From: Candidatus Thorarchaeota archaeon
Lineage (GTDB): Archaea > Asgardarchaeota > Thorarchaeia > Thorarchaeales > Thorarchaeaceae
NCBI GenBank assembly: GCA_011364985.1
Contig: RDOC01000003.1
Coordinates: 96,001 to 160,000, forward strand
Direction of reading: 5' to 3'
Length of the DNA stretch: 64,000 nt
Below are positions 42,729-56,680 of this stretch, piece after piece; position 1 is the first letter of the stretch; the number at the start of each line of letters is the position of its first letter. The notes under the pieces are model-generated. The model searched no databases. It saw only the letters and a program-made list of their open reading frames with translations, and had not been told where the DNA came from. A program made the position numbers and the translations under genes.

Positions 42729-43475
42729 ATGAAGATTGCCAAACAGATTTTCAAGCAAGCTCTTGAAGAGGGAAGAACCTTTGTTCTTGAACATGAAGCG
42801 AAGGATATAATGAAGGCATATGGGTTACCAGTGCCAGCTTATGATACCGCAACAACAGCTGAAGCAGCAGCAGAGAAGGCCAAGAAGATTGGATTCCCAG
42901 TTGTACTGAAAATACTCTCGAAAGATATTCTTCACAAATCAGATGCCGGCGGCGTCAAAATCGACCTGAAGAGCGAGGAGGAGGTCAAGGAGGCCTTCTC
43001 AACCATAATGGATAACGCCAGAAAATATGGGAAGGAAAAGGGGATTGAGGTAGACCTTAGCAGAGGGGCATTCATCTCTGATTTTGCAGAAATGGGTACC
43101 GAAGTCATTGTTGGTGTTACAAAAGATCCTCAATTTGGACATGCATTGATGTTTGGACTTGGAGGGATATTTGTTGAGATCCTGAAGGATGTAACCTTCC
43201 GATTAATACCTCTCACCGAGATAGATGCTCGAGAGATGATTTCCGAAATAAAGGCTGCCAAGGTATTGGAGGGAGTGAGAGGACAACAGCCCCGCGACGT
43301 GGATGCCTTGGTTGAAATCATTATGGCTGTTTCAAAAATGGTATCGGAGAATCCTGAGATAAATGAGATTGACTGCAATCCCACGTTTCTTTACGAGAGA
43401 GGAAAAGGTGCCTTGGTGGTTGATGCCCGAATTCTAATCGAAAATCCGAATGAGAAGGCAGCATCTAGCCACTGA
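42729..43475 (+). CDS. acdB: ADP-forming acetyl/acyl-CoA synthetase beta subunit (ATP-grasp)
   Basis: LEHEAK, GFPVVLK..S.DI.HKSDAGGV, DPQFG, FGLGGIFVE, E.D.NP, VDARI. Confidence 0.93.
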   Translation: MKIAKQIFKQALEEGRTFVLEHEAKDIMKAYGLPVPAYDTATTAEAAAEKAKKIGFPVVLKILSKDILHKSDAGGVKIDLKSEEEVKEAFSTIMDNARKYGKEKGIEVDLSRGAFISDFAEMGTEVIVGVTKDPQFGHALMFGLGGIFVEILKDVTFRLIPLTEIDAREMISEIKAAKVLEGVRGQQPRDVDALVEIIMAVSKMVSENPEINEIDCNPTFLYERGKGALVVDARILIENPNEKAASSH

Positions 43476-44661
43476 TGAGATCGTGAAAGAGAACCAAGCT
43501 TCTCTTCAGATCCAAGTCTTGTAAACCTCTGTCACTTGATGCCTTTGTGACTCCAGCCAGTAAGAGCAATAATGCGACCATTCTGGGCACAAGCTTCGCA
43601 TTTTGTAGCAAGAACTCACGGTTCCTCGTAGAGTCCACGAGCAGACCCTCCAGCCGTCGCACAAGGAGAGAGAGCTTCTCATCCACACCAGCATCGAGCT
43701 GTATCTTTCGAAAGAGTGCATTTACTGTTGCTTCGTCCCGGAAATTCTCCTGTGATATGCCAATACTGTTCAATAGCCCCATGGACCCTAGAATAATCGA
43801 ATCGTAATCATCTTCCTCAATCCGTGAGAGTCCTTGCTCCAAGGCCTTGAGCTGAGCTAAAAACTTGAGAGAGTTCGTTAGGATATTTCTTGAAGCACTT
43901 GGCACGGAGAAGGCGATTTTCGCCAGACTTGCTTCATTCAGTCGCTCAAGCCGAGCAGCCACCGAAGACTCCAGTTTTCTCTCGAAGCCCGGGGAAAAGG
44001 CAATCTCTGCAAGCTTGGCAATCTTAGGGTCGGTGGAGATTCGACGGATGGCAGTCAGAGCCTTGAAATCATACAATGGAGTGTAGAAGAGAAGAATTCT
44101 AAGAATATCATAGGCTACCTCAAAATCGCTTTCAGTCGTCACACTACGACCTTGGCTCTTACAGGAAAATCCACTGATGAGAACCCAGCAGGACGCAAAC
44201 CGTTCGCATAATGCCTCGCACGATTTCGTATCGGTGAGTCCGTGATCCTCCAGAAATCGGGCCAGCTTCTCTGCAGCCCCAGCAATGCGTCCGGAAGTCT
44301 CACCCCCTATCTGAACTTGTGATAGAGATAGCATAAACTCTCTGGGGTCTCTTGAAGGAAGCCTAAGCCGAAATCCAGGATCCTCCCTGGTAATGGTCCA
44401 CCATTTGGAGGTAGATGTGAAGTGGTCTAGGATATCAACTGCACCTGTAAGATCGGATATACTAGAGGTGGTACGCCCGTCAAGTATGGTAATCGTTTTA
44501 CATATGGTTTCTAAGAAGTGTGAGAGGTGAATTATGAGCTTTTGACCTGCAAAGACTTGGTGCGAATACCGACCTATGACCGAATCGATATGTGATACAA
44601 TTTCAGTTGGAATTGATGCATCGATCAGTCCTCGATAAATCTCGATTGGGGTCCTTGTCAA
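43465..44661 (-). CDS. Hypothetical all-alpha protein with four ~100-aa AAA+-lid/histone-fold-like repeats
   Basis: Repeat ends GRTTSSISDLTGAVDIL, GRSVTTESDFEVAYDIL, GLSRIEEDDYDSII, DRGLQDLDLKRSLVLF; no P-loop. Confidence 0.6.
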   Translation of the reverse strand: MTRTPIEIYRGLIDASIPTEIVSHIDSVIGRYSHQVFAGQKLIIHLSHFLETICKTITILDGRTTSSISDLTGAVDILDHFTSTSKWWTITREDPGFRLRLPSRDPREFMLSLSQVQIGGETSGRIAGAAEKLARFLEDHGLTDTKSCEALCERFASCWVLISGFSCKSQGRSVTTESDFEVAYDILRILLFYTPLYDFKALTAIRRISTDPKIAKLAEIAFSPGFERKLESSVAARLERLNEASLAKIAFSVPSASRNILTNSLKFLAQLKALEQGLSRIEEDDYDSIILGSMGLLNSIGISQENFRDEATVNALFRKIQLDAGVDEKLSLLVRRLEGLLVDSTRNREFLLQNAKLVPRMVALLLLLAGVTKASSDRGLQDLDLKRSLVLFHDLISG

Positions 44662-45591: not shown

Positions 45592-45963
45592 CTATATCAT
45601 CTGAGACACCTTATCGGCAGCTCTCTTCATCTCAAGAAAGACCATTCCGAGCTTGGCACTTGCAGTTGTTGAAACCGTTAGGCAGGCATTCATTCCAGCT
45701 TGAACAACAAGCAGCCACCCGTCAACGCCCTTGATATTCACTTGCTCAAGATTCCCCTTTCCAAGCTCTATTGCGGCCTTTTCACCAAGCGTAAGCATTG
45801 CTGCAGTCATCGCAGCAACCTTAGCCTCATCAACATCCGTTGGCAAGGCAGATACAATGGGGAGCCCTTCAACACTCACTATTGCGCATGCCTCAATCTC
45901 AGGTATGCTACCCTGCAGCTCATTCAGCACGCTTTCCAATGTATCTCCGCGGCTCTCTGCCAT
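45592..45963 (-). CDS. Roadblock/LC7 (MglB-like) protein
   Basis: AIVS.EGLPI.S.LP..VDE..VAAM.AA.L.LGE....ELGKG.L, AKLG.V. Confidence 0.93.
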   Translation of the reverse strand: MAESRGDTLESVLNELQGSIPEIEACAIVSVEGLPIVSALPTDVDEAKVAAMTAAMLTLGEKAAIELGKGNLEQVNIKGVDGWLLVVQAGMNACLTVSTTASAKLGMVFLEMKRAADKVSQMI

Positions 45964-45983
45964 TAATTTCACCTAATTGATTA

Positions 45984-46547
45984 TCATTTGTACATCCTTT
46001 TCAGGATGACCTCTCGCGCTATTGCCTGAAAGGCTCTTTTAACTCCTACACCCTGAACAGCAATAGTCTCGTATATCGGAACATTTCCCCCCAGACCCAG
46101 TAGGTCAAGCATCTCATCCCGGGACATCCTGTTGGGTAGATCACGCTTGTTAAGCATGACGACAATCGGAATCTCACGTCCTAGAGCATCACCCAAAAAG
46201 AGCTTTAGCTCTTCGAAACTCTCAGTGTTCTCATCTCGCTGATCTGGCGAAGAGTCGGCAACAAAGAGAATTCCGTCTGTGCCTTGTAACACCACCTTTC
46301 TCTGGTGCCTGTGTCTCTTCTGTCCAGCTACTGTGAATACATCGAAGAGTACACGACCTCCTGCACTCATGGGAACATAATCAAAGAATAATGTGCGGTT
46401 AGTTTCATCTTCGATTGCAGTGAACTCTCCCTTTTGCAGACCCTCCACTTTTCCATAGAGCCACCTGAGAGCTGTGGTCTTACCGCCAAGGGATGGTCCG
46501 TAGAAGACAAGCTTGAGATGTATGCGACCTTGGACGTCCTTCCGCAC
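45984..46547 (-). CDS. MglA-family small GTPase
   Basis: G1 GPSLGGKTT, G2 RTLFFDY, G3 TVAGQ, G4 NKRD, G5 TIA. Confidence 0.93.
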   Translation of the reverse strand: MRKDVQGRIHLKLVFYGPSLGGKTTALRWLYGKVEGLQKGEFTAIEDETNRTLFFDYVPMSAGGRVLFDVFTVAGQKRHRHQRKVVLQGTDGILFVADSSPDQRDENTESFEELKLFLGDALGREIPIVVMLNKRDLPNRMSRDEMLDLLGLGGNVPIYETIAVQGVGVKRAFQAIAREVILKRMYK

Positions 46548-46875: not shown

Positions 46876-47757
46876 TTATACACTCTCTTTCTTGATGTTT
46901 CTTCTATGATAGACAAGAATCACGATCACTCCGAGCAGCGATAGTCCAATTTCGACCAAGGGCAATCGCAAACCATAGACTGCAACCCACTCATTTAGAT
47001 AGTAGCATCTGAAGTAACCAGAAAGATCAAACCCGTCACCAGACTCACTTCCGCTTATTTGGAAATGCGCCAGCGATTCGTTTCCCTTGTATAAGAGGAC
47101 TGGGAGGCGTTCTGATAAGAACTGGTAGTGCCATTCTCCTTGAATTGTCAGGTTCAGTGAATTAAGGAATGGTATTGTGAATGATACAATTGTGTGAGTC
47201 ATATTTTGGGTATCAGAATCATTGACTATGGTCATTAGGAATAAGACTCTTAGCGTATTATTGTCATAAGCCAAGAGGTCCACGTCCTTAGATAGAGAAC
47301 GAACCTGAATTGTTGATTCGTTGATTAGCATATTCTGAAGGCCATCCAGAATGTACACTTCCTTTGATAAATCGGAAGACGCGATTATCCACGATGTAAA
47401 GTTGAATCTAAATTCGTAACGGGCACCCGGGATTGTAGTATATTCCCGAAAGCCCTGTTTTGTCCCATCTAATAGATTTCTACCGAATGCAACCTGATGC
47501 AAGATGGTGAAACTTCTCATTTCAGTTATTCCTGAAAATGATTGATTCCCTGGTGATGTAATATTGGAACAAAGTGGGAATCCAAATTCATCTAATGGAG
47601 GATCTTGAAGGCGGCCGCCATTTCTGACCAATGCATCGACGGTACCTAGAGCCATTCTTTCGTGACTATAGTCAAAATCAATAGTATACACGCCAAGCAA
47701 CAAAATACCCAGCAAAATAACTACGGTCATCATGAGGATAATCTTGCTATGTTTCAC
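46876..47757 (-). CDS. Hypothetical exported protein with N- and C-terminal membrane anchors
   Basis: N-terminal hydrophobic helix, several N-x-S/T sequons, C-terminal TM plus basic tail; AT-richer than flanks. Confidence 0.65.
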   Translation of the reverse strand: MKHSKIILMMTVVILLGILLLGVYTIDFDYSHERMALGTVDALVRNGGRLQDPPLDEFGFPLCSNITSPGNQSFSGITEMRSFTILHQVAFGRNLLDGTKQGFREYTTIPGARYEFRFNFTSWIIASSDLSKEVYILDGLQNMLINESTIQVRSLSKDVDLLAYDNNTLRVLFLMTIVNDSDTQNMTHTIVSFTIPFLNSLNLTIQGEWHYQFLSERLPVLLYKGNESLAHFQISGSESGDGFDLSGYFRCYYLNEWVAVYGLRLPLVEIGLSLLGVIVILVYHRRNIKKESV

Positions 47758-48429: not shown

Positions 48430-48900
48430 TCACACTCGCTCAAGCTCTGCCAAAGCAGACTTGAGATCCTCTTCGTCAAGTTCCTTATCTTTTCCTCCAG
48501 GGGCAATTGGTTCGACTGCAAGGAACTTGTCGAGTTCATCAGCAAGTTGTACACCCTGCTTCTTCATAACAAGACGAATCAAGCCAATGTTGACTTCTGC
48601 CTCAGATACGACGCAGAGTACGCCTTTGCCACAGGCCGATGCGAAAATTTTGCCCTCGCTGAACTCCGATGTGACAATCTCCAATTCTCCAATTTGGAGG
48701 TTCACACCCTGTTCTTCGCTGGCGCAGAATACAGCACTAGCAATCGCACCAATTGAGTCTACGTCGACAGGGTAGTAAGAGAGCTTACTCACATTGGCAA
48801 TTGTTAGTCCTGTCTTGTCAACCAGAATTACTTTCTTGATCCCCTTGTCCTGCCTGATGATCTCAGTCAGGATCTTATCGAAAGCTTTTGGATCGCTCAT
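48430..48900 (-). CDS. Roadblock/LC7 protein with acidic C-terminal helical extension
   Basis: VILVDKTGL.IA, IGAIASAVF.ASE.QG..L..G.L, VNIGLIRL; tail ELDEEDLKSALAELE. Confidence 0.88.
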   Translation of the reverse strand: MSDPKAFDKILTEIIRQDKGIKKVILVDKTGLTIANVSKLSYYPVDVDSIGAIASAVFCASEEQGVNLQIGELEIVTSEFSEGKIFASACGKGVLCVVSEAEVNIGLIRLVMKKQGVQLADELDKFLAVEPIAPGGKDKELDEEDLKSALAELERV

Positions 48901-48917
48901 TCCACTATATCCCCATA

Positions 48918-49214
48918 CTAATTCTTCTTGAGGACCACTAATATCAGGCCCTCCTTTTCATCAGGTGCGATGTTTATTTGTCCGTGTGTTGTGTCCAACG
49001 TGAGGAAGGACAGCGACCCCTCGCGAAGAAGGCGCACCGCATCCAGTGCTTTTCCCACGAGAGAGGTGATGATTGCAGCGATGTTTTCGGTTGTGTCAGA
49101 GTCAAGATCACTGCTTAGCGGCAGTCCTTCCATGGTAGTAATCACTACTCCTCGGACGCCGTCCTGTGCCTTTAGCTTTGACAGGACTTTCTGTAGTTTT
49201 TCTTGACTTATCAA
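48918..49214 (-). CDS. Short Roadblock/LC7 protein (lacks the final helix)
   Basis: L.KL....GVRGVVI.T.EGLPL.S.L......IAA....L...A, L.FL.L.T, LILVVLK. Confidence 0.9.
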   Translation of the reverse strand: MISQEKLQKVLSKLKAQDGVRGVVITTMEGLPLSSDLDSDTTENIAAIITSLVGKALDAVRLLREGSLSFLTLDTTHGQINIAPDEKEGLILVVLKKN

Positions 49215-49430: not shown

Positions 49431-51062
49431 TTACGCTTTGTCCTCGTCTTCAAATATCTTCTTTGAACTTCTCTTCATCTGAGCAAGGTTTTCCACGGCA
49501 GACATGTCAGCTGCTGCAGAGGGGGCTGCTCCACCTGCAGGAGCTTCTCTCATGCGTTCTTCTTGACGCACGAGCTCCTCCTCTTCCGCAGCCAATACGT
49601 TGTCTGCCTTTTCAAGCATCTGCTGAACAGGCGCTGGAGCTGCTCGGGCTCGAGCCTTCATAGCTGATCTAAAGGCAGAGAGACGCTTCTTGCCTTTTTC
49701 TCTGTCACCCCTAACGGCATCTTCACCAGCCTTCTGAGTAACAAAGGTAGCACCCACTGTGGGGTCAAGGGATTTCATAATCTCCTCTTCCTTGTCTGAA
49801 ACCCGAAGCCTTGTTGTGACCGCACGAACCCTTCGCGCACCATCGTTGTCGGTATAGGCAACTTGAACTTGGATGGGAATCTCCTGATCATTGATCTTGG
49901 CAGAGGGCTCTACCTCAAAGTAGAGCTCATGATCCTCTCCAACGACCCCGATTTTGCCCCCACTCTTTTTCTTGAGTTCATCAAGAACCACACGAGAGGC
50001 TCCAGATGCGTCCTTCACCTTAACGCCCGCAGGAGTTACGAGCTTGACTTCTACATCACGACCTAGCATTGCAGACCCCGCTAGTTCTGAAAGACTTCGA
50101 TCGAGCTCATTTGGTGTGACATAGTACATTGTCCCACCCGTTATCTCGGGCATGAGACCAAGGGTCTTCAATTCCATTCCACCACCGGAAGCGATACCAA
50201 CGACATCGACAGCTGTTCCAAGGTCCAAGAACCTCCTTCCAATATTCTCGTAGAATTTGGAACCAGGCGTGACCTGATAACCCTCAAGCGCACCGATGCC
50301 CTCGTTGGCAAGGCCGTCGGTAAGCAGAACCACACGTCCAACATTACGATGTTTCGATATAGTACTGGCCATTGCAACAGCAGGTCCGAGGGCTGTGCCG
50401 CCTTGGTCGCGTAGTGCACGAACATGGTTCTTTAGCTTGTCAGCATTCTTTCCAACGTGAACAAGCCGTATCTTGTCCAATAGATTCTTTGTTGCTTCAT
50501 CAATGTCCTTGAGACTCATGAATGAACTTGTCGGCAATTCAACTGGATGACCGGTTTCTAAATCTCGTGCAACAACTGTGCTCTCGAACTCGATCAGACC
50601 GAACATGGTATCGGGAGCATTTACTGCTAGGCTATCTATCGAAGTTGTAAGGCTTCTCTTAACAGCTGAAAGATTCTCCCCAGCCATCGAGCCGGAAACA
50701 TCGATTAGAGCCAAAAATGATCTACCACCAGCAGAAACTTCACCTATGGCAGTCTTCGTCGCTTCAGGTGGTAGCTCGATGACGAAGTCAGTTTCATCCC
50801 CCGCAGCAACGACTTCGCCTTCAATAACATTCAGAGTTCCACAAAATGGACAAAGAAAATGTCGTCCGACTTTCGGATCATCCCTGATCTGATCCGTGCT
50901 AATTAGAAAGCCATTGCATTTGTGGCAGGCAATAGGCTTCCCGACGATTTTGGTCGTTTCGCGTGCTAGCTCTCCAAACTCAATACGGAGAACATAAGGG
51001 ATGTCACTCATGACGCCTTTAGAGGCTGGAAAAGTCTTTGAGCTGGTTCTTAGTAAAGGCAT
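49431..51062 (-). CDS. Sec23/Sec24-like protein: Zn finger + vWA trunk + beta-sandwich + helical tail
   Basis: CHKC...CPFCGTLN Zn finger; vWA IDVSGSM, GGTALGPA, LLTDGLAN.G.G; Q.Q..YT..DG.RR.R..T beta-sandwich. Confidence 0.82.
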   Translation of the reverse strand: MPLLRTSSKTFPASKGVMSDIPYVLRIEFGELARETTKIVGKPIACHKCNGFLISTDQIRDDPKVGRHFLCPFCGTLNVIEGEVVAAGDETDFVIELPPEATKTAIGEVSAGGRSFLALIDVSGSMAGENLSAVKRSLTTSIDSLAVNAPDTMFGLIEFESTVVARDLETGHPVELPTSSFMSLKDIDEATKNLLDKIRLVHVGKNADKLKNHVRALRDQGGTALGPAVAMASTISKHRNVGRVVLLTDGLANEGIGALEGYQVTPGSKFYENIGRRFLDLGTAVDVVGIASGGGMELKTLGLMPEITGGTMYYVTPNELDRSLSELAGSAMLGRDVEVKLVTPAGVKVKDASGASRVVLDELKKKSGGKIGVVGEDHELYFEVEPSAKINDQEIPIQVQVAYTDNDGARRVRAVTTRLRVSDKEEEIMKSLDPTVGATFVTQKAGEDAVRGDREKGKKRLSAFRSAMKARARAAPAPVQQMLEKADNVLAAEEEELVRQEERMREAPAGGAAPSAAADMSAVENLAQMKRSSKKIFEDEDKA

Positions 51063-51256: not shown

Positions 51257-51622
51257 ATGGTGGATAAAGGCAAGATTGAACAAGTAGTAGCAGACACGAT
51301 GGCAGCAAACGAGAACCTTGAAGGAATTGTTGTATGTAATGCAAAGGGCGAGGTGCTATTTGGACACACCATAGCCGCAGGCGTTAAACACACTGACGTT
51401 GCATCACTGGCTGTCAAAATTGCTGCGAACTCATCTCAGCTGGCGGGTGGCTTGGATAAAGGAGGACTCAAGGAAGTATCAATCGCAGCGGACAACGGCT
51501 TTATCGTTGTATTGGGCGATGTCAGAATAGTCCTAGCAGGTATAGCAGGAGAAGGAGCGCGTGAGTCTATGGGGCTTATTCGAATGGCTCTGAAGCGCGC
51601 CTTATTGAAGATGCTTGAATGA
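51257..51622 (+). CDS. Roadblock/LC7-fold protein (divergent)
   Basis: LEGIVVCN..G.VL, L.KGGL.EV.I....GFIVV, MGLIRMALKR. Confidence 0.8.
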   Translation: MVDKGKIEQVVADTMAANENLEGIVVCNAKGEVLFGHTIAAGVKHTDVASLAVKIAANSSQLAGGLDKGGLKEVSIAADNGFIVVLGDVRIVLAGIAGEGARESMGLIRMALKRALLKMLE

Positions 51623-51815
51623 TGCATAGTGCTTCCAGCAACCGCAGAGCTACCTTTTTTTGGTGATATTTAGCTCAAGTAAATGCATACACTAATACCT
51701 GAATGATGTCTGGGTACTACCTAGGTAGTACCAACCGTATTAGGGATTGTGTATTATTTCCGAAATGGACAGGCCAGAGTATAGTATCGGAAGGAAAGTC
51801 GGAAGGGATTGCATC

Positions 51816-54800
51816 TTGGTCCATATTGACAAGCTCGTATGCAAGGGTTTCAAGTCATTTGGCCGAGAAACTGTTACTATCAATTTCAGTCCAGGATTTA
51901 CTTGCATTGTAGGCCCTAACGGATCAGGAAAGTCCAATGTCATCGATGCGATCCTTTTTGTTCTTGGGCAGCTAAGCGCCAAGACTCTTCGAGCAAATGT
52001 CTTCTCGGACCTTCTCTATTCTCCACCGAAACCAAATATGCCGCCGAAGGCAAGATCTGCACTAGTAGAGCTTCACTTTGATAATAGAGACCGAAAGCTG
52101 CAGATTGAAGCAGACCGAGTTGTAATTGAGAGAGAGCTTGATGATACTGGGAAATCTACCTGCAGAATAAACGGGAAGGTGGTTACGCGATCCTCAGTTC
52201 TTGAAGTACTAGGAGCCATAGGTGTCGATCCCAATGGATATAATCTTGTTCTTCAAGGAGAGATAGCACAGATTGTAAAGGTAAGCCCAATTGATCGTCG
52301 AAAGCTGATTGAAGAGATTGCAGGAATATCTGCCTACGATGAGCAAAAAGAGCGTGCTCTGAAGAAGCTTGCTGAGAGCGAATCAAATCTGGGCAAGGTA
52401 GAGATGCAACTTCAAGAAAGACGAAGGCAACTGGAAAAATTGGAAGAGGAACGTTCTGATGCCTTTCGTCACAAAAGCATCACAGAGAAGATCAAAGCTA
52501 TCTCAGCCGATAGCTATGCTTGGAGGATAGTAAAGTGCCGGAACCGAATCGAAACGATACATGAAACCCTTGCAGAAAGAGCCGAAGAAGCTGAGAAGCT
52601 GGAACGTGAACATGCAGAAGCTGAAAAGAAAGCAAAACAAACTGAAGAGCAAATCGATGCGATTGACACGGAGATTGATGGGATTACTGGTGGAGCATCA
52701 GCAAGAATTTCTGAACAATACGGAGTTGTTTCGGCGGCTGTTGACCATTTAAGAAGGGATTTGGAGAGAACAAGAATCGAGCTAGAGAATCTAACCGAAG
52801 AGAAGAGCTCTGTTCAGGTCGAAATGCAATCCATCAAGGACCAAGTTGAGGGCTCACTGGCGCTAACAGACGAAAAGGAACAAGAGCTTTCAAGGCTCAA
52901 TAATGAAATAGCCGAGTGCTCTAGAAAAGTAACTAGTTTAGAGGAGCATATTGAGAAAGAACAAGAGAGCATACTCGAAGCAACACAACGTTTGCAGGAC
53001 CTCAATAACCAGATGAGGATGCTTGACGAAGGTGTTTCTGAAGTGCGTTCGGCCATCAAAAGCGATAGCAAGGAGCTAGGAATGGCCTACGAGGAGCTTC
53101 AGGACTCCAAGAATCTCCTTGAAAGGACAGAAGATGAACTTGTGGAACTAAGAAGAATCATACCAGTCAAGCGCGAGGAACTGCAAAAATCGGAAGAGGA
53201 TGAGTCTGTTAAAAGAGTGAAAGTAGATGAACTTGAAAAGCGATTAAGGACCATTGATGAGGAGGAGCGAGAAGCAGGAAAGATTGTAAAAGCCACGCGG
53301 GAAGAGCTTATTCGAATTCAAGCAAGGCAAGATGCATTAAAGGATGCAGAAGAGGCATTTCTCAAGAAAAAACATGCCTTGGCACGTGTGCTTGAACTCC
53401 GTGATTCCAACACTATTTCCGGGATATATGGTACTGTTGCTGAACTTGGAGTGATCAATCCGGAATATGCCACCGCTATGGAGGTCGCAGGCGGCAACCG
53501 CCTTTCATATATCGTCGTGGAAAGCGATCATGCAGCCAGTGAATGCATTGATATTCTAAAGAGAGAGAGGGTGGGCCGTGCATCCTTCATTCCACTGAAT
53601 AAAATAAGAACAAAACAGTCAGGCAAGCTTCCTAGCGATAAGGGAGTGATTGGTTTTGCAATTGACTTAGTGAGTTTTGAACCGAAGATGAAGCCTGCTT
53701 TCGATTTCGTCTTTTCGGACACTATTGTCACTGAGAACTTCGAAACTGCGAAAAGGCTTGGTTTCAAAGGTATGAGAGCGGTTTCTCTGGAAGGAGACCT
53801 TGTTGAGAAATCAGGATTGATAACAGGGGGACATTATCATCGTACATCCGTAGGACTCTCTCTGCAGGAGAAGGACATTAGTCCACAGATTGCGGAGCGT
53901 TTGAAGGGTCTGGAAAAGGTACACAATGGGCTATTGGACCAACAAGAAGAACTGAGAAAGCAGAAGAGCATTTTTGATCATGAGATTCAAGATCTGTCAA
54001 AGACCAACTATAGAGCACAGCTGGAACTCGACGGGCTTGACGAACGCTTGAAAGAGAAGGAGAATCGGTCTGCAGTTCTGAAGGAGCGAATAGCAACAGC
54101 TGAAGTCACGATAGAGGCCTTGGAGAAGCAAATTGGTGAGCTAACAGAACGAGATAATGAACTATCGCAGCACCGGGAGATGGTGAGAGAACAAAGAGAT
54201 GATGTCAATGAGCAGCTGGCCAAGTCTGATACTGCCAAGCTTACTCAGTACATGAAAGACTTGAAGGAAGTAATGGAACGGCACAAACAGGAGCGCGAGG
54301 CCTTGATGAGCGAGATTACTTCCCTCAAGGTGGCCCTAGACGAAAGGCTGAAGCCGAAGCTGATGGAACTTGATTTGCGCCATCAATCCTTAGCCAAGGC
54401 AACTCCTGATCTAGAGATCAAAGTAAAGGAACTCAAAGATGAACTTGCCGAGAAAGAGGAAGAGTTCCTCAAGCTTAAGGCGGAACGTGATCAGATTGAT
54501 GAAGCCGTTAAGGACAAACGAGTTCTTCAGCTTGAACTGAAAGAGAAGCTTCGTAATTTCAGGCTGCGCCATGAGGAAATTCGAGAGGAACAGACAGCCA
54601 ATGAGAAAGCTGTATACCGGCTTCAGACTGAACAGTCACGCTTAGAAACGGATATCGTTGGTTTTGTGGCCGAACTCAATGAGATATCCCGCGCTGATGA
54701 GGAGGTTGCAAAGAGAACAACTCTAAGAGAGATTACATACAAGGAAATTGATGATTTTGAGGACAAAATCAAGGAACTGGAGAGGGAGCTGGAGGCATTA

Positions 54801-55406
54801 GGTCCTGTTAACCTAAAAGCCCTTACAGACTATGATCTTGAGAAAGACAAGTACGAAGAGATTGTTGATAAAAAGACCAAACTGGAGGAAGAGCATAAAG
54901 AAATCCTTGCCTTCATGGAAGAAATCGAAGCTGAGAAGACACGTAAGTTTCTGCAGGTCTATAATGAGATTGCAGACAATTTTGCGTCAGTGTTCTCCAA
55001 GCTCTCACCGGATGGAGAAGCCACGCTCATGCTTGAGAATCCAGAACATCCCTTAATGGGAGGGATTACTGTAAAATCAAAGCCTCGAGGAAAGGAACTC
55101 GTCACATTGGACGCAATGAGTGGTGGAGAGAAGACCATCACGGGACTTGCGCTGATTTTCGCCATCCAGATGTACAATCCTGCGAGCTTCTATATCTTTG
55201 ATGAGATAGACGCGGCTCTAGATGATGTAAATGCACATAATGTGGCGCTCTTAATAGCAGAGATGTCAAAGTCTTCCCAATTCGTGATTGTATCATTGAG
55301 AGACACAACTGTCAGCAAGGCTGACTTGTTGATAGGAGTATCAAATCAGGACGGCATCTCAAGAATCGTCAAAGTTGACCTTGAGGAGGTGGGCTCTGCA
55401 GCATGA
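51816..55406 (+). CDS. smc: Chromosome segregation protein SMC
   Basis: GFKSF, GPNGSGKSN, Q-loop, coiled coils, hinge GD....SG..TGG, MSGGEK, DEIDAALD; TTG start 51816. Confidence 0.97.
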   Translation: MVHIDKLVCKGFKSFGRETVTINFSPGFTCIVGPNGSGKSNVIDAILFVLGQLSAKTLRANVFSDLLYSPPKPNMPPKARSALVELHFDNRDRKLQIEADRVVIERELDDTGKSTCRINGKVVTRSSVLEVLGAIGVDPNGYNLVLQGEIAQIVKVSPIDRRKLIEEIAGISAYDEQKERALKKLAESESNLGKVEMQLQERRRQLEKLEEERSDAFRHKSITEKIKAISADSYAWRIVKCRNRIETIHETLAERAEEAEKLEREHAEAEKKAKQTEEQIDAIDTEIDGITGGASARISEQYGVVSAAVDHLRRDLERTRIELENLTEEKSSVQVEMQSIKDQVEGSLALTDEKEQELSRLNNEIAECSRKVTSLEEHIEKEQESILEATQRLQDLNNQMRMLDEGVSEVRSAIKSDSKELGMAYEELQDSKNLLERTEDELVELRRIIPVKREELQKSEEDESVKRVKVDELEKRLRTIDEEEREAGKIVKATREELIRIQARQDALKDAEEAFLKKKHALARVLELRDSNTISGIYGTVAELGVINPEYATAMEVAGGNRLSYIVVESDHAASECIDILKRERVGRASFIPLNKIRTKQSGKLPSDKGVIGFAIDLVSFEPKMKPAFDFVFSDTIVTENFETAKRLGFKGMRAVSLEGDLVEKSGLITGGHYHRTSVGLSLQEKDISPQIAERLKGLEKVHNGLLDQQEELRKQKSIFDHEIQDLSKTNYRAQLELDGLDERLKEKENRSAVLKERIATAEVTIEALEKQIGELTERDNELSQHREMVREQRDDVNEQLAKSDTAKLTQYMKDLKEVMERHKQEREALMSEITSLKVALDERLKPKLMELDLRHQSLAKATPDLEIKVKELKDELAEKEEEFLKLKAERDQIDEAVKDKRVLQLELKEKLRNFRLRHEEIREEQTANEKAVYRLQTEQSRLETDIVGFVAELNEISRADEEVAKRTTLREITYKEIDDFEDKIKELERELEALGPVNLKALTDYDLEKDKYEEIVDKKTKLEEEHKEILAFMEEIEAEKTRKFLQVYNEIADNFASVFSKLSPDGEATLMLENPEHPLMGGITVKSKPRGKELVTLDAMSGGEKTITGLALIFAIQMYNPASFYIFDEIDAALDDVNAHNVALLIAEMSKSSQFVIVSLRDTTVSKADLLIGVSNQDGISRIVKVDLEEVGSAA

Positions 55407-56110
55407 GTAATGATTTGCCATTCTGGGCCGCCCCACCGTATATACTCCTGACCGATGTCCTTCAGCTTGACAAAGTTAAACCATGGAACGTTGACGTGGG
55501 AAAGCTTGTTGCAGGCTTCCTCAGAGAGATGAGGAGAATTGGCGATATAGACTTCCGTGTATCAGGAAGTGCTCTTTATTCCGCGTCTGTGATCTTCATG
55601 AGAAAGACGCGTGAACTTGTGGAACTTGGTTTATTGTCTCCTGATGAGGATGATGAGGAAGAGGACCTTATCATTCCCTTAATACGACCTCCATTTAGGG
55701 TTTCTAATCAACGCGTCACATTAGAAGAGCTTCTTGTTGCTATGGACCGCGTTTTGAGCAAAGGTGTTCGTCAACGCTCAAGTCCTTCAAAGACTAGAAG
55801 ATATAGCACTAGGGCCGACCCCTTGGCCTTCAAAATGGAGAGCACGCGTGCAGATGTGGAGGAGAATATCGCAGAAGTCTATGATGACCTCTGCAAGGTG
55901 ATGAAGATAGGAGACGAATCCAGATTCGTAGATCTTCTTATGAACAACTCAAGAAGAGAGATTGTCAGAATGTTCTTTGCAATTCTACATCTCTTTGCCC
56001 GAACATTCATTGACATTTGGATGGATGACGAGGAAGTCATCTGGGTGAAGCTGTTGGAACCTCCTGTTGAGGAAGAGGAGGAAACAATACAGTCAGCTGT
56101 TGACGGGTAG
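55403..56110 (+). CDS. scpA: Kleisin ScpA
   Basis: PWNVDV..L...FL, DFRVSG.AL..AS.....K, VTLEEL..A, F.A.LHL; overlaps smc stop. Confidence 0.9.
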   Translation: MSNDLPFWAAPPYILLTDVLQLDKVKPWNVDVGKLVAGFLREMRRIGDIDFRVSGSALYSASVIFMRKTRELVELGLLSPDEDDEEEDLIIPLIRPPFRVSNQRVTLEELLVAMDRVLSKGVRQRSSPSKTRRYSTRADPLAFKMESTRADVEENIAEVYDDLCKVMKIGDESRFVDLLMNNSRREIVRMFFAILHLFARTFIDIWMDDEEVIWVKLLEPPVEEEEETIQSAVDG

Positions 56111-56680
56111 ATGGTTGAGGTGAATGAGGATCTGGTCAAACTGGAAGCGGCACTATATGTTGCAGGCCGTCCTGTCACTCTGGAAGAATTGTCGAACATA
56201 ATAGATAAGGCTGAATCCACCACGAGGAAGCTTCTTGAGAATCTTGGATTTGAGTATAGACAGCGAGAAGGCGCCTTGGAAGTGGTAGAACTTCCCAGAG
56301 AGAGATACGTACTACAGCTGAAGCCAGAACTGACACCAGGTGTTGCGAAGCTGATTCCAGGAGGCCTGCTTTCTTTTGCCACGCTCCAGACACTGGTATA
56401 CATTGCCCTAAAACAGCCAATCCTTCAGTCGGAACTCGTTGCTGAACGAGGAACGCATTGTTATGACCATATCAAAGAACTGATTGAGAAGAAGTTTGTT
56501 GATGCCGTTCCTGAGGGGCGAAGCAGGATTTTGACAACAACAGATCTCTTTGCAGACTACTTTGGACTAGACCCAGATAGAGTGCGGCTTAAGGCCCAAC
56601 TCAAATTCAAAATGAAACGTATACTCTCAGAACAACAGGAGCTTGAAGACCAAGCTGCTGCAGAGGAGTTTCTGAGATAA
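56111..56680 (+). CDS. scpB: SMC-Scp complex subunit ScpB (Kite)
   Basis: LEAALYVAG.PV....L, LQTL..IA..QPI.QS.L...RG...Y.HIKEL, TT..FADYFG. Confidence 0.95.
   Translation: MVEVNEDLVKLEAALYVAGRPVTLEELSNIIDKAESTTRKLLENLGFEYRQREGALEVVELPRERYVLQLKPELTPGVAKLIPGGLLSFATLQTLVYIALKQPILQSELVAERGTHCYDHIKELIEKKFVDAVPEGRSRILTTTDLFADYFGLDPDRVRLKAQLKFKMKRILSEQQELEDQAAAEEFLR

Follow-up and report, generated by a model that had tools for sequence, protein, structure and literature searches.

A Thorarchaeial Sec23/24-like protein with a complete MIDAS, no gelsolin-like domain and CPRas-type proteins as its nearest eukaryotic relatives

The 543-residue protein encoded on the minus strand at 49431..51062 of the window (the whole 64,000-nucleotide stretch of Candidatus Thorarchaeota DNA analysed here) is a true homologue of Sec23/24 with a homologous zinc finger, and its nearest eukaryotic relatives are the little-studied CPRas-type ZnF-vWA proteins rather than the COPII coat. 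The gene is the Thorarchaeial orthologue of a published Asgard 'Sec23/24-like' family, which was described as lacking gelsolin but having all other Sec23 domains, which returns Sec23 in Foldseek, and which has been called a precursor of the COPII inner coat (PMC11914678, Nat Commun 2025). Nothing structural separates the published Asgard Sec23-like proteins from the one in the window; for example, the 'SEC24 family transport protein' of Thorarchaeota SMTZ1-45 is an orthologue with 74% identity over the full length, equal in length, alike in its Pfam matches and located in the same gene cluster. The core of the observation, a gelsolin-less family, is already known, and a MIDAS-bearing archaeal relative of the Sec23/24 core, ArnB, is also in print; the first-pass annotation thus overestimated the novelty of the protein. 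What we add here is the invariance of the zinc-finger and MIDAS residues, the kinship with CPRas-type proteins, and the MglA/Roadblock setting of the gene; the word MIDAS has 0 occurrences in PMC11914678, and CPRas-type relatives are likewise unmentioned there.

The open reading frame starts with ATG and carries the motifs first read from its translation: C46-H-K-C49 and C71-P-F-C74 in the zinc finger, and D121-V-S123-G-S125, T223 in GGTALG and D249 in LLTDG in the vWA domain, where all five MIDAS residues are present. These nine residues (four Cys and five of the MIDAS) show no substitution in 33 homologues, among which identity falls to 22%, and so are not there by chance; the alignment takes in one eukaryotic (Entamoeba) sequence, which leaves the invariant columns unaffected. 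Thus, the MIDAS is not only intact but under selection. The order of zinc finger, vWA, beta-sandwich and helical region initially proposed for the protein is borne out by Pfam, by a Sec24 profile alignment, and by the AF2 model with Foldseek and VIA-align. That domain list was right about the finger but began there, and so missed residues 1-40 (50943..51062), which form strands (E4-6, E10-12, E23-28 and E37-40 in the AF2 model) of a beta-barrel, as in Sec23/24. Then come, likewise on the minus strand, a C4 zinc finger of Sec23/24 type (residues 41-80; 50823..50942), the vWA 'trunk' domain (residues 113-331; 50070..50726), the beta-sandwich (residues 332-423; 49794..50069; model strands at 332-422) and an all-helical domain (residues 424-543; 49434..49793; model helices at 425-542).

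Pfam recognizes these domains to different degrees. The trunk model PF04811 (Sec23_trunk) scores 48.6 bits against a cut-off of 27 over residues 116-316 and matches 31 of the 33 family members, while PF08033 (Sec23_BS) covers residues 336-422 at 33.1 bits, slightly below its cut-off of 33.5, and is matched by 31 of 33 members at E <= 0.01. The finger model PF04810 (zf-Sec23_Sec24) is matched by 14 of 33 members and, at E <= 0.01, not by the 543-residue protein itself; C46, C49, C71 and C74 nevertheless align with the zinc fingers of yeast Sec24 and human Sec24D/C. As no member (0/33) matches PF04815 (Sec23_helical), the all-helical domain is assigned by fold only. The Pfam Gelsolin model also matches none of the 33, and no such domain follows the helical domain; in the Thorarchaeial genome itself, gelsolin domains are confined to a separate frame of 218 residues. 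A GTPase domain, including an N-terminal circularly permuted Ras domain, is absent from the protein, in which only 40 residues precede the finger. A profile search for fused or longer prokaryotic forms among proteins above 1002 residues gave only 3 weak, generic vWA matches, which is weak evidence by the tool's own account.

The predicted structure places the protein firmly with Sec23/24. The AF2 model (pLDDT 87.2, pTM 0.86) returned only Sec23/24 among its top ~46 Foldseek matches in the PDB, with E-values down to 2.4e-30. VIA-align superposed all four domains on Sec23A with Z 29.7 and 498 of 543 residues aligned, ahead of ArnB (8s05, Z 25.3) and the bacterial protein 4fx5 (Z 22.4). In this alignment residue 1 of the model lies opposite Sec23A residue 13 and the model ends opposite residue 623 of 765, in agreement with the missing gelsolin-like domain reported at the outset. 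The same end point means that helices 425-542 extend as far as the helical domain of Sec23A does, so the helical region is not 'short', as was first thought. Nor does the protein finish in an Ala/Pro-rich tail: that stretch (~507-515) is a low-confidence loop between the last helices, and the last residues of most Asgard members form a conserved, basic motif, [KR][KR]x[ST]xxx[LI]F. At the level of sequence, the family profile aligns with yeast Sec24 in the PDB without a break from zinc finger to helical domain (profile positions 41-473, E 2.5e-25), and Sec24 scores higher (92 bits) than Sec23 (45 bits).

The protein is 16-20% identical to the COPII proteins (e.g. PDB 1M2V, 1M2O, 3EFO). Its beta-barrel, zinc finger, trunk and helical domains are homologous to theirs, follow the same order along the chain and are arranged alike in space. 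It differs from the COPII proteins in having a complete MIDAS and no gelsolin-like domain. In Sec23A, VVDTCME stands in place of IDVSGSM, so that both MIDAS serines are lost, and in yeast Sec24 VSG stands in place of TDG, so that the last MIDAS Asp is lost. The arginine that Sec23 uses as a GAP sits in its C-terminal gelsolin-like domain, and the Asgard protein, which lacks this domain, therefore lacks a Sec23-type arginine finger. Moreover, Sec23 and Sec24 form a heterodimer of two paralogues, whereas the Asgard family mostly gives one match per genome: PF04811 finds one in the genome of the window (74% complete) and one in most of the 145 positive genomes, which argues against a Sec23/Sec24-type paralogue pair.

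Beyond Asgard archaea, the closest sequences by far are CPRas-type proteins, among the best 150 matches listed, all of which are Asgard or CPRas-type. The first-pass annotation had drawn a link to CPRas proteins, and the searches bear it out. The CPRas family was described by Elias & Novotny 2008 as having an N-terminal circularly permuted Ras domain, and eukaryotic ZnF-vWA proteins without that domain also exist (PMC2430557). In a single-sequence search, CPRas-type proteins gave E-values of 1e-34 to 1e-21, against 3e-4 for Sec24 chains in the PDB, a far smaller database. They include CPRas1-like proteins of echinoderms and a nemertean, a choanoflagellate transcript, and VWFA proteins of Entamoeba and Stentor; in the latter two genera, members of 520-573 residues lack the permuted Ras domain. 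Profile comparison with hhalign aligned the Asgard and CPRas-type families from residue 22 over 445 columns (E 8.8e-85), and the CPRas-type relatives cover the full Asgard profile. The two groups are alike from end to end, with N-terminal strands, a four-Cys finger, a MIDAS-complete vWA domain, a beta-sandwich, a helical domain and no gelsolin, and every eukaryotic relative whose alignment spans the four Cys and five MIDAS residues keeps them (CCCC, DSSTD). The eukaryotic proteins differ in an insertion of ~37 residues after the DxSGSM loop and, in many cases, in an N-terminal cpRAS or other extension of 100-350 residues. A model of an Entamoeba CPRas-type protein has the same fold, ends at Sec23A ~624, and reaches Z 23.8 to Sec23/24. 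In a phylogenetic tree, a single branch with SH-aLRT 100 separates 35 Asgard sequences from 35 eukaryotic or long ones, and because this split is clean the Asgard family is a sister group, rather than a member, of the eukaryotic CPRas-type clade; the tree covers these two groups, and how both relate to canonical Sec23/24 is judged from profile scores and from the Z-scores of the folds instead. We found no paper in the literature that connects CPRas-type proteins with Asgard archaea.

A prokaryotic comparison is offered by ArnB (PDB 8S05), published as an archaeal relative of the Sec23/24 core with a MIDAS; in Sulfolobus acidocaldarius it takes part in a complex that is driven by phosphorylation and for which no GTPase is known (PMC12852372). 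ArnB and the bacterial ArnB-like vWA proteins (4FX5, YfbK type) share with the Asgard protein a MIDAS vWA together with a beta-sandwich and, C-terminally, a helical domain; VIA-align matched 364 residues of the model to 8s05_A, and 5a8j followed with Z 23.2. In ArnAB, too, a zinc finger packs against the beta-sandwich, but it is provided in trans by the FHA protein ArnA, whereas the Asgard protein carries its own finger in cis, at the place where Sec23/24 have theirs. ArnB and the Asgard family resemble each other in sequence only over the MIDAS segment.

The genes around the Sec24-like gene suggest candidate partners. On the same strand lie Roadblock/LC7 gene A (98 residues; 48918..49214; Robl_LC7 E 5.8e-16), which is 216 bp downstream and keeps its position in 6 genomes of the family; Roadblock/LC7 gene B (156 residues; 48430..48900; Pfam Robl_LC7 and MAPKK1_Int); an MglA-type GTPase (187 residues; 45984..46547) with the P-loop GPSLGGKT and the switch-I sequence NRTLFFD; and, 11 bp after it, Roadblock/LC7 gene C (126 residues; 45592..45972; 59.6 bits), the last three also in conserved positions. 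The Robl_LC7 match of gene C spans contig positions 141670-141921 (45670-45921 of the window), its SMTZ1-45 orthologue carries Robl_LC7 as well, and it is likely the MglB partner of the GTPase. A weak Roadblock-like gene D (121 residues; 51257..51622; Robl_LC7 E 0.0025, below the cut-off) is transcribed divergently on the plus strand, with an equally placed orthologue in 6 genomes. In phmmer searches of the PDB the GTPase matched MglA of M. xanthus and T. thermophilus at E ~4e-38, with the best Arf at 5e-12, and its switch-I arginine agrees with the earlier expectation of a partner GTPase that carries an arginine of its own. The arrangement resembles MglA-MglB of Myxococcus xanthus and Thermus thermophilus in the RTLFFD arginine and the Roadblock gene 11 bp downstream, but there are four Roadblock paralogues here and one MglB there. 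We know of no linkage of bacterial MglAB to a Sec23/24-like gene.

This arrangement is conserved only locally. In the family to which the window belongs, 6 genomes have MglA and the four Roadblock genes next to the Sec24-like gene; this adjacency is confined to that family, and synteny within one family may simply be inherited. Co-transcription is uncertain because of the 216-bp gap before the first Roadblock gene and, in the genome of the window, an extra ORF of 293 residues between the Roadblock pair and MglA; no tRNA or other landmark was found at this insertion between Roadblock B and MglA. Elsewhere the neighbours are not orthologous: a Ras-family GTPase lies beside the gene in genus g70 of family f22 (5 genomes), an Arf/Ras-like GTPase lies 126 bp upstream in genus g64 of the same family, and a Roadblock gene lies 210 bp upstream in f19. 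Thus, there are at least four distinct settings in which a GTPase or Roadblock gene lies near the Sec24-like gene. A first neighbour sample contained a Ras-type domain in 2/70 and a Roadblock domain in 2/70, and neither kind of neighbour was found in f14, f16, f23, f30, f2, f20 and most f21 loci. Universal conservation of the neighbourhood was rejected, since three divergent orthologues and most families outside Thorarchaeia have no GTPase or Roadblock neighbour. In f22 a short ORF separates the Sec24-like gene from its Ras-like GTPase neighbour; considered as a possible Roadblock or longin protein, it proved to be a peroxiredoxin fragment.

From these observations we infer that the protein is most likely not a GAP but an adaptor or effector that depends on metal and serves small-GTPase modules; our confidence in this reading of the MIDAS-intact orthologue as a whole is evenly balanced. 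As a presumably cytosolic protein, it has a beta-barrel, a C4 zinc finger, a vWA trunk and an all-helical domain, and so four of the five domains that make up Sec23/24. Because its MIDAS is complete and strictly conserved, the predicted site would most likely contact a partner protein by binding one of its acidic residues through a divalent cation. In Thorarchaeia the candidate module would consist of the adjacent MglA, with its own arginine finger, and the Roadblock (MglB-like) regulators. Sec23/24 themselves work with Sar1, which is one strand of a GTPase link that is circumstantial. The other strands are the Ras-domain fusion in CPRas (PMC2430557), the adjacency of MglA and Roadblock genes, and the GTPase or Roadblock neighbours in other lineages. 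Counting against such a link are the gene neighbourhood, which varies across the family, the co-precipitation of three Asgard Sec23-like proteins with an Asgard Arf in yeast, which was weak and independent of nucleotide (PMC11914678), and the structural relative ArnB, which has no known GTPase. A bolder version, which we put forward tentatively and think unlikely as a whole, would have the Asgard and CPRas-type proteins be survivors of an ancestral, MIDAS-active form of Sec23/24 from which COPII arose by gain of gelsolin and loss of the metal site, with the Thorarchaeial protein a GTP-dependent effector of the adjacent MglA and the Roadblock dimers its GAP or GEF. If this were true, a three-part module of GTPase, Roadblock and adaptor would be older than the GTPase-coat logic of eukaryotic trafficking, and in eukaryotes the partnership of GTPase and adaptor would have turned into a covalent Ras-ZnF-vWA fusion.

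Other readings of the same data have to be weighed against the adaptor or effector role. The protein could be a signalling scaffold in phosphorylation-controlled complexes, as are ArnA/ArnB in the control of Sulfolobus motility, with its GTPase and Roadblock neighbours a coincidence. The close fold match to ArnB, which has a functional MIDAS, the ArnAB finger on the beta-sandwich (though from ArnA in trans), the C-terminal [KR][KR]x[ST]xxx[LI]F motif as a possible kinase site, and a neighbourhood that most lineages do not conserve are all consistent with such a role. Yet no FHA-domain or kinase gene stands beside the Sec24-like gene in the loci scanned, the sequence lies far nearer to those of Sec24 and the CPRas-type proteins than to that of ArnB, and the repeated GTPase/Roadblock neighbours and the Ras fusions of the eukaryotic relatives speak against it as well; we regard the scaffold as the most credible of the rivals, but doubtful.

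A role as a proto-COPII coat subunit, that is, a Sec24-like cargo adaptor or inner-coat element on membranes that drives or selects for vesicle budding, is in our judgement improbable. It draws on the published designation as inner-coat precursors (PMC11914678), on COPII inner-coat proteins being the best sequence and fold matches, with Sec24 ahead of Sec23, and on the Z-scores to Sec23/24, which are higher for the Asgard model (29.7) than for the CPRas-type one (23.8). Against this, Sar1-contact residues are missing from the Asgard proteins, three of them gave weak, nucleotide-independent co-precipitation with an Asgard Arf in yeast, and convincing outer-coat or Sec12 homologues were not found (PMC11914678); furthermore, there is neither a paralogue pair nor a gelsolin domain, the MIDAS that is strictly conserved here has decayed in the real coat proteins, and none of its closest relatives in eukaryotes is a coat protein. 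Finally, the protein might be an ordinary prokaryotic vWA protein (YfbK/ChlD-like) joined to an unrelated zinc ribbon and resembling Sec23/24 through the shared vWA fold only. It does match the VWA and VWA_2 Pfam models, some databases name its orthologues 'VWA domain-containing protein', 'YegL' or 'Mg-chelatase subunit ChlD', and a profile of the N-terminal part with the short MIDAS segment alone ranks inter-alpha-trypsin-inhibitor vWA domains at the top of the PDB, although a Sec23A alignment is also obtained. This reading, which the first-pass annotation had itself set against its own proposal, is contradicted by the continuous Sec24 profile alignment, the Foldseek matches and the VIA Z-scores: by sequence as well as by fold, Sec23/24 come ahead of ArnB and the bacterial vWA proteins, and the finger occupies the Sec24 position, aligns with the Sec24 finger, and in 14 of the 33 members matches zf-Sec23_Sec24. 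We consider it scarcely credible.

Asgard 'Sec23/24' proteins are widely cited as evidence that parts of the vesicle coat were present in the archaeal ancestor of eukaryotes. The present results make this reading more cautious and more testable. The Asgard protein keeps a candidate site for metal-dependent binding that is strictly conserved, whereas the real coat proteins have lost theirs, and eukaryotes retain a gelsolin-less CPRas-type family of the same architecture that is much closer to it than COPII and is often fused to Ras. Therefore, there is no need to see an 'unfinished Sec23' in the archaeal protein, which may instead have a conserved function of its own. Such a function would be open to study in eukaryotes that are amenable to experiment, among them Dictyostelium, Entamoeba and ciliates, and the MglA and Roadblock genes, together with the Ras-like neighbours elsewhere, provide concrete candidate partners.

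The reading frame at 49431-51062 (minus strand) encodes a protein of 543 residues, P0001, and it is real, with every motif named in the first-pass annotation present: a zinc finger (C46-H-K-C49 and C71-P-F-C74) and a MIDAS (D121-V-S123-G-S125, T223 in GGTALG, and D249 in LLTDG). Because these nine residues are invariant in 33 full-length homologues (alignment A1, with identities to P0001 down to 22%), the zinc finger and complete MIDAS are under strong purifying selection rather than being chance motifs. At the C-terminal end, most Asgard members of the alignment also carry a basic motif, [KR][KR]x[ST]xxx[LI]F (P0001 residues ~529-537, window positions 49434-49460), which could serve in phosphorylation or docking. 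Thorarchaeial members have an acidic tail after it (e.g., KRSSKKIFEDEDKA), and the eukaryotic CPRas-type proteins described below do not conserve the motif.

P0001 is recognized by the Pfam model Sec23_trunk (48.6 bits, cut-off 27), and scores 33.1 bits against Sec23_BS (cut-off 33.5). In the PDB, the family profile matches yeast Sec24 (E 2.5e-25) in one unbroken alignment that spans the zinc finger, trunk, and beta-sandwich and extends into the helical domain, followed by human Sec24A/B and then by Sec23A at 4.7e-11. The AlphaFold2 model of P0001 is confident (pLDDT 87.2, pTM 0.86), and its first ~46 PDB matches in Foldseek are without exception Sec23 or Sec24 chains (E to 2.4e-30, TM ~0.7 on the query). 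Profile and fold thus bear out the domain order first proposed: zinc finger, vWA, beta-sandwich, helical. In VIA-align, 498 of 543 residues align with Sec23A (Z 29.7), and model residues 1-543 correspond to residues 13-623 of the 765 in Sec23A. The gelsolin-like repeat of Sec23A begins around residue 630, so the helical domain of P0001 is whole and the protein stops where a gelsolin domain would start. None of the 33 family members matches Pfam Gelsolin, in agreement with the absence of this domain claimed at first pass. None matches Pfam Sec23_helical either, so that the helical domain is identified through its fold alone. The first-pass annotation needs correcting in two details: the supposedly "short" helical region is complete, and the Ala/Pro-rich "tail" is, in the model, a loop of low confidence that lies between the final helices. 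These data show that P0001 is a cytosolic four-domain protein of the Sec23/24 fold that lacks the gelsolin domain, the source of the arginine finger in Sec23. At another place in this genome, two gelsolin-domain matches in one 218-aa reading frame (G000:C11:415877-416404) indicate that the missing domain exists as a putative stand-alone two-domain gelsolin.

The MIDAS differs between this family and the coat proteins. Yeast Sec24 retains D-V-S-Q-S and the threonine but has VSG in place of the family's TDG, while human Sec23A has VVDTCME in place of IDVSGSM. Over the short MIDAS segment, the Asgard profile scores higher against vWA domains with a functional MIDAS, those of inter-alpha-trypsin-inhibitor heavy chains, than against Sec23/24. 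The word MIDAS is absent from the text of the paper on the Asgard Sec23-like family (PMC11914678).

The window is from a Thorarchaeote, and P0001 and its central interpretation are already known. More than 120 database clusters from Thorarchaeota/Promethearchaeota MAGs are 71-87% identical to it at ~540 aa, and its orthologue in Thorarchaeota SMTZ1-45 (P0039, 74% identity) bears the name 'SEC24 family transport protein'. Sec23/24 is listed among Asgard eukaryotic-signature proteins in reviews and preprints, and published work presents the crenarchaeal ArnA/ArnB complex as an archaeal equivalent of the Sec23/24 core. Could P0001 instead be an ordinary vWA protein, with an unrelated zinc finger, of a bacterial family? 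Generic VWA models in Pfam do match it, but the profile and fold matches to Sec23/24 contradict this reading, which we regard as close to negligible: in fold, both ArnB (Z 25.3) and the bacterial vWA protein 4fx5 (Z 22.4) score below Sec23/24.

We searched 1.8 billion representative proteins exhaustively with HMMER. Among the matches listed, ~40 full-length Asgard-type clusters come first, followed by many proteins of 520-1100 aa at E values of 1e-34 to 1e-21; the best PDB Sec24 chain matches P0001 at 3e-4 (23 bits), in a far smaller database. Those of the 520-1100-aa proteins that are named are eukaryotic. They include 'circularly permutated Ras protein 1-like' proteins of Diadema, Acanthaster, Lineus, and Tubulanus, a choanoflagellate transcript, and 'VWFA domain-containing' proteins lacking cpRAS from Entamoeba invadens (520 and 547 aa) and Stentor (573 aa). 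In the Diadema protein, Pfam matches a Ras domain in two stretches, then VWA, Sec23_trunk, and Sec23_BS; the CPRas link made at first pass is borne out among the nearest eukaryotic relatives. The eukaryotic proteins span ~20-525 of the 534 Asgard profile positions and show no substitution of C-C-C-C or D-S-S-T-D wherever the alignment covers those columns. In most, the C-terminus falls within 15-60 residues of the profile end, and the surplus length is N-terminal; four scanned relatives with long C-terminal extensions have Kelch or ankyrin repeats or nothing recognizable there, and no gelsolin domain. These relatives are the family of Elias and Novotny (2008), which combines cpRAS, a possible four-Cys finger, and a VWA/'Sec23 trunk' domain, and has cpRAS-less members in Dictyostelium, Entamoeba, ciliates, and some metazoans (PMC2430557). 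A literature search found no paper linking CPRas with Asgard archaea.

Compared profile to profile, the Asgard and eukaryotic sets match at E 8.8e-85 over 445 columns. In a maximum-likelihood tree of these two sets (70 sequences, 521 columns, LG+C20 PMSF, quick search), one branch separates all 35 Asgard from all 35 eukaryotic or long sequences (SH-aLRT 100), and the eukaryotic branch attaches to the Asgard part at its unresolved base. This topology speaks against a recent transfer. With PDB Sec24 as the target, the score is 92 bits for the Asgard profile and 74 for the CPRas-type one. The Entamoeba AlphaFold2 model (pLDDT 83) has Sec23A as its best match, ending at Sec23A ~602-624, with Z 23.8 against 29.7 for the Asgard model. 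Thus, by similarity of profile and fold rather than by a three-way tree, the Asgard family lies between the two eukaryotic families, far nearer the CPRas-type. The profile-Sec24 and Asgard-CPRas-type alignments show no indel that CPRas-type proteins and Sec24 share but the Asgard family lacks.

In the window, the Sec23/24-like gene is followed downstream on the minus strand by two Roadblock genes (48918-49214 and 48430-48900), a 293-aa ORF assigned to no Pfam family (46876-47757), an MglA GTPase (45984-46547), a third Roadblock gene (45592-45972), a UPP-synthase-type prenyltransferase, and a 398-aa ORF with no Pfam match (43465-44661). A weak Roadblock-like gene (51257-51622, plus strand) flanks the Sec23/24-like gene divergently, directly followed by a condensin operon (51747-56680, plus strand; SMC, 1219 aa; ScpA-like, 235 aa; ScpB, 189 aa). 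SMTZ1-45 shares the condensin arrangement and has an equal-length orthologue of the 398-aa ORF at the same position (L006:10761-11957). The GTPase is an MglA, as it matches Myxococcus and Thermus MglA at E ~4e-38 and the best Arf at 5e-12, and it conserves the switch-I RTLFFD arginine. MglA uses an intrinsic arginine, and its GAP is the Roadblock-fold MglB. Six genomes, spread over several genera within the window's family, keep the whole Roadblock/MglA/Sec23/24-like arrangement, and three of the only seven Pfam-level Roadblock matches in the window's genome lie in this cluster. The 293-aa ORF has hydrophobic helices at both termini and many N-x-S/T sequons; the Roadblock pair and MglA are 141 bp apart in a same-genus genome (L040), and L039, of another genus, carries a ~4-kb insertion there. 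This intergenic site seems to take up insertions repeatedly. Two further MglA paralogues (G000:C17:64857-65402 and G000:C15:93343-93858, 52% and 38% identical to the window MglA) each have a Roadblock match within ~2-8 kb (C17:72858-73121 and C15:91452-91682), giving at least three MglA/Roadblock modules in the genome, only one of which adjoins the Sec23/24-like gene.

The family profile (E <= 1e-20) matches 145 of 400 genomes and 39 of 85 genera of the phylum, usually once per genome. In the window's own family (75/85 genomes) and in some others (12/12, 6/6, and 13/19) it is near-universal, and in others it is rare or absent; a single copy is present in the window's genome, which is 74% complete. 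Of the orthologues examined outside the window's family, none has the MglA/Roadblock arrangement beside it. Other GTPase-related neighbors do occur. In one genus of family f22 (g70, five genomes; L030:6682-9650, L031, L032, L055, and L056), a Ras-family GTPase lies two genes upstream on the same strand, with a peroxiredoxin fragment between it and the Sec23/24-like gene. In one genome of another f22 genus (g64; L043:5195-7656), the gene 126 bp upstream encodes a different, Arf/Ras-like GTPase. One f19 genome has a Roadblock gene 210 bp upstream (L026:7276-9560), and in f13 a Ras GTPase is 4 kb away; loci examined in six other families have no GTPase or Roadblock neighbor. We read the association with small-GTPase systems as recurrent, not universal, and short of proof. 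Both the fusion to Ras in CPRas and the Sar1 partnership of Sec23/24 are consistent with it.

How might P0001 act? We propose that P0001 would work with small-GTPase modules as their adaptor or effector rather than as their GAP, binding an acidic residue of its partner via a MIDAS-held cation; in Thorarchaeia, the candidate module would be MglA with its Roadblock regulators. A scaffold like ArnB, under phosphorylation control and unrelated to GTPases, is a less probable role that we would still give some weight: ArnB has a MIDAS too, but the zinc finger of ArnA/ArnB comes in trans from ArnA. A proto-coat, in which the family has a true coat function, would fit the shared Sec23/24 fold, yet the MIDAS departs from that of the coat proteins, and we consider this still more doubtful. 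The first-pass observation is confirmed and its interpretation partly supported. What remains of interest is the apparently unpublished conservation of the MIDAS, the apparently unpublished relationship to CPRas-type proteins, and the candidate GTPase partners of this Asgard family.
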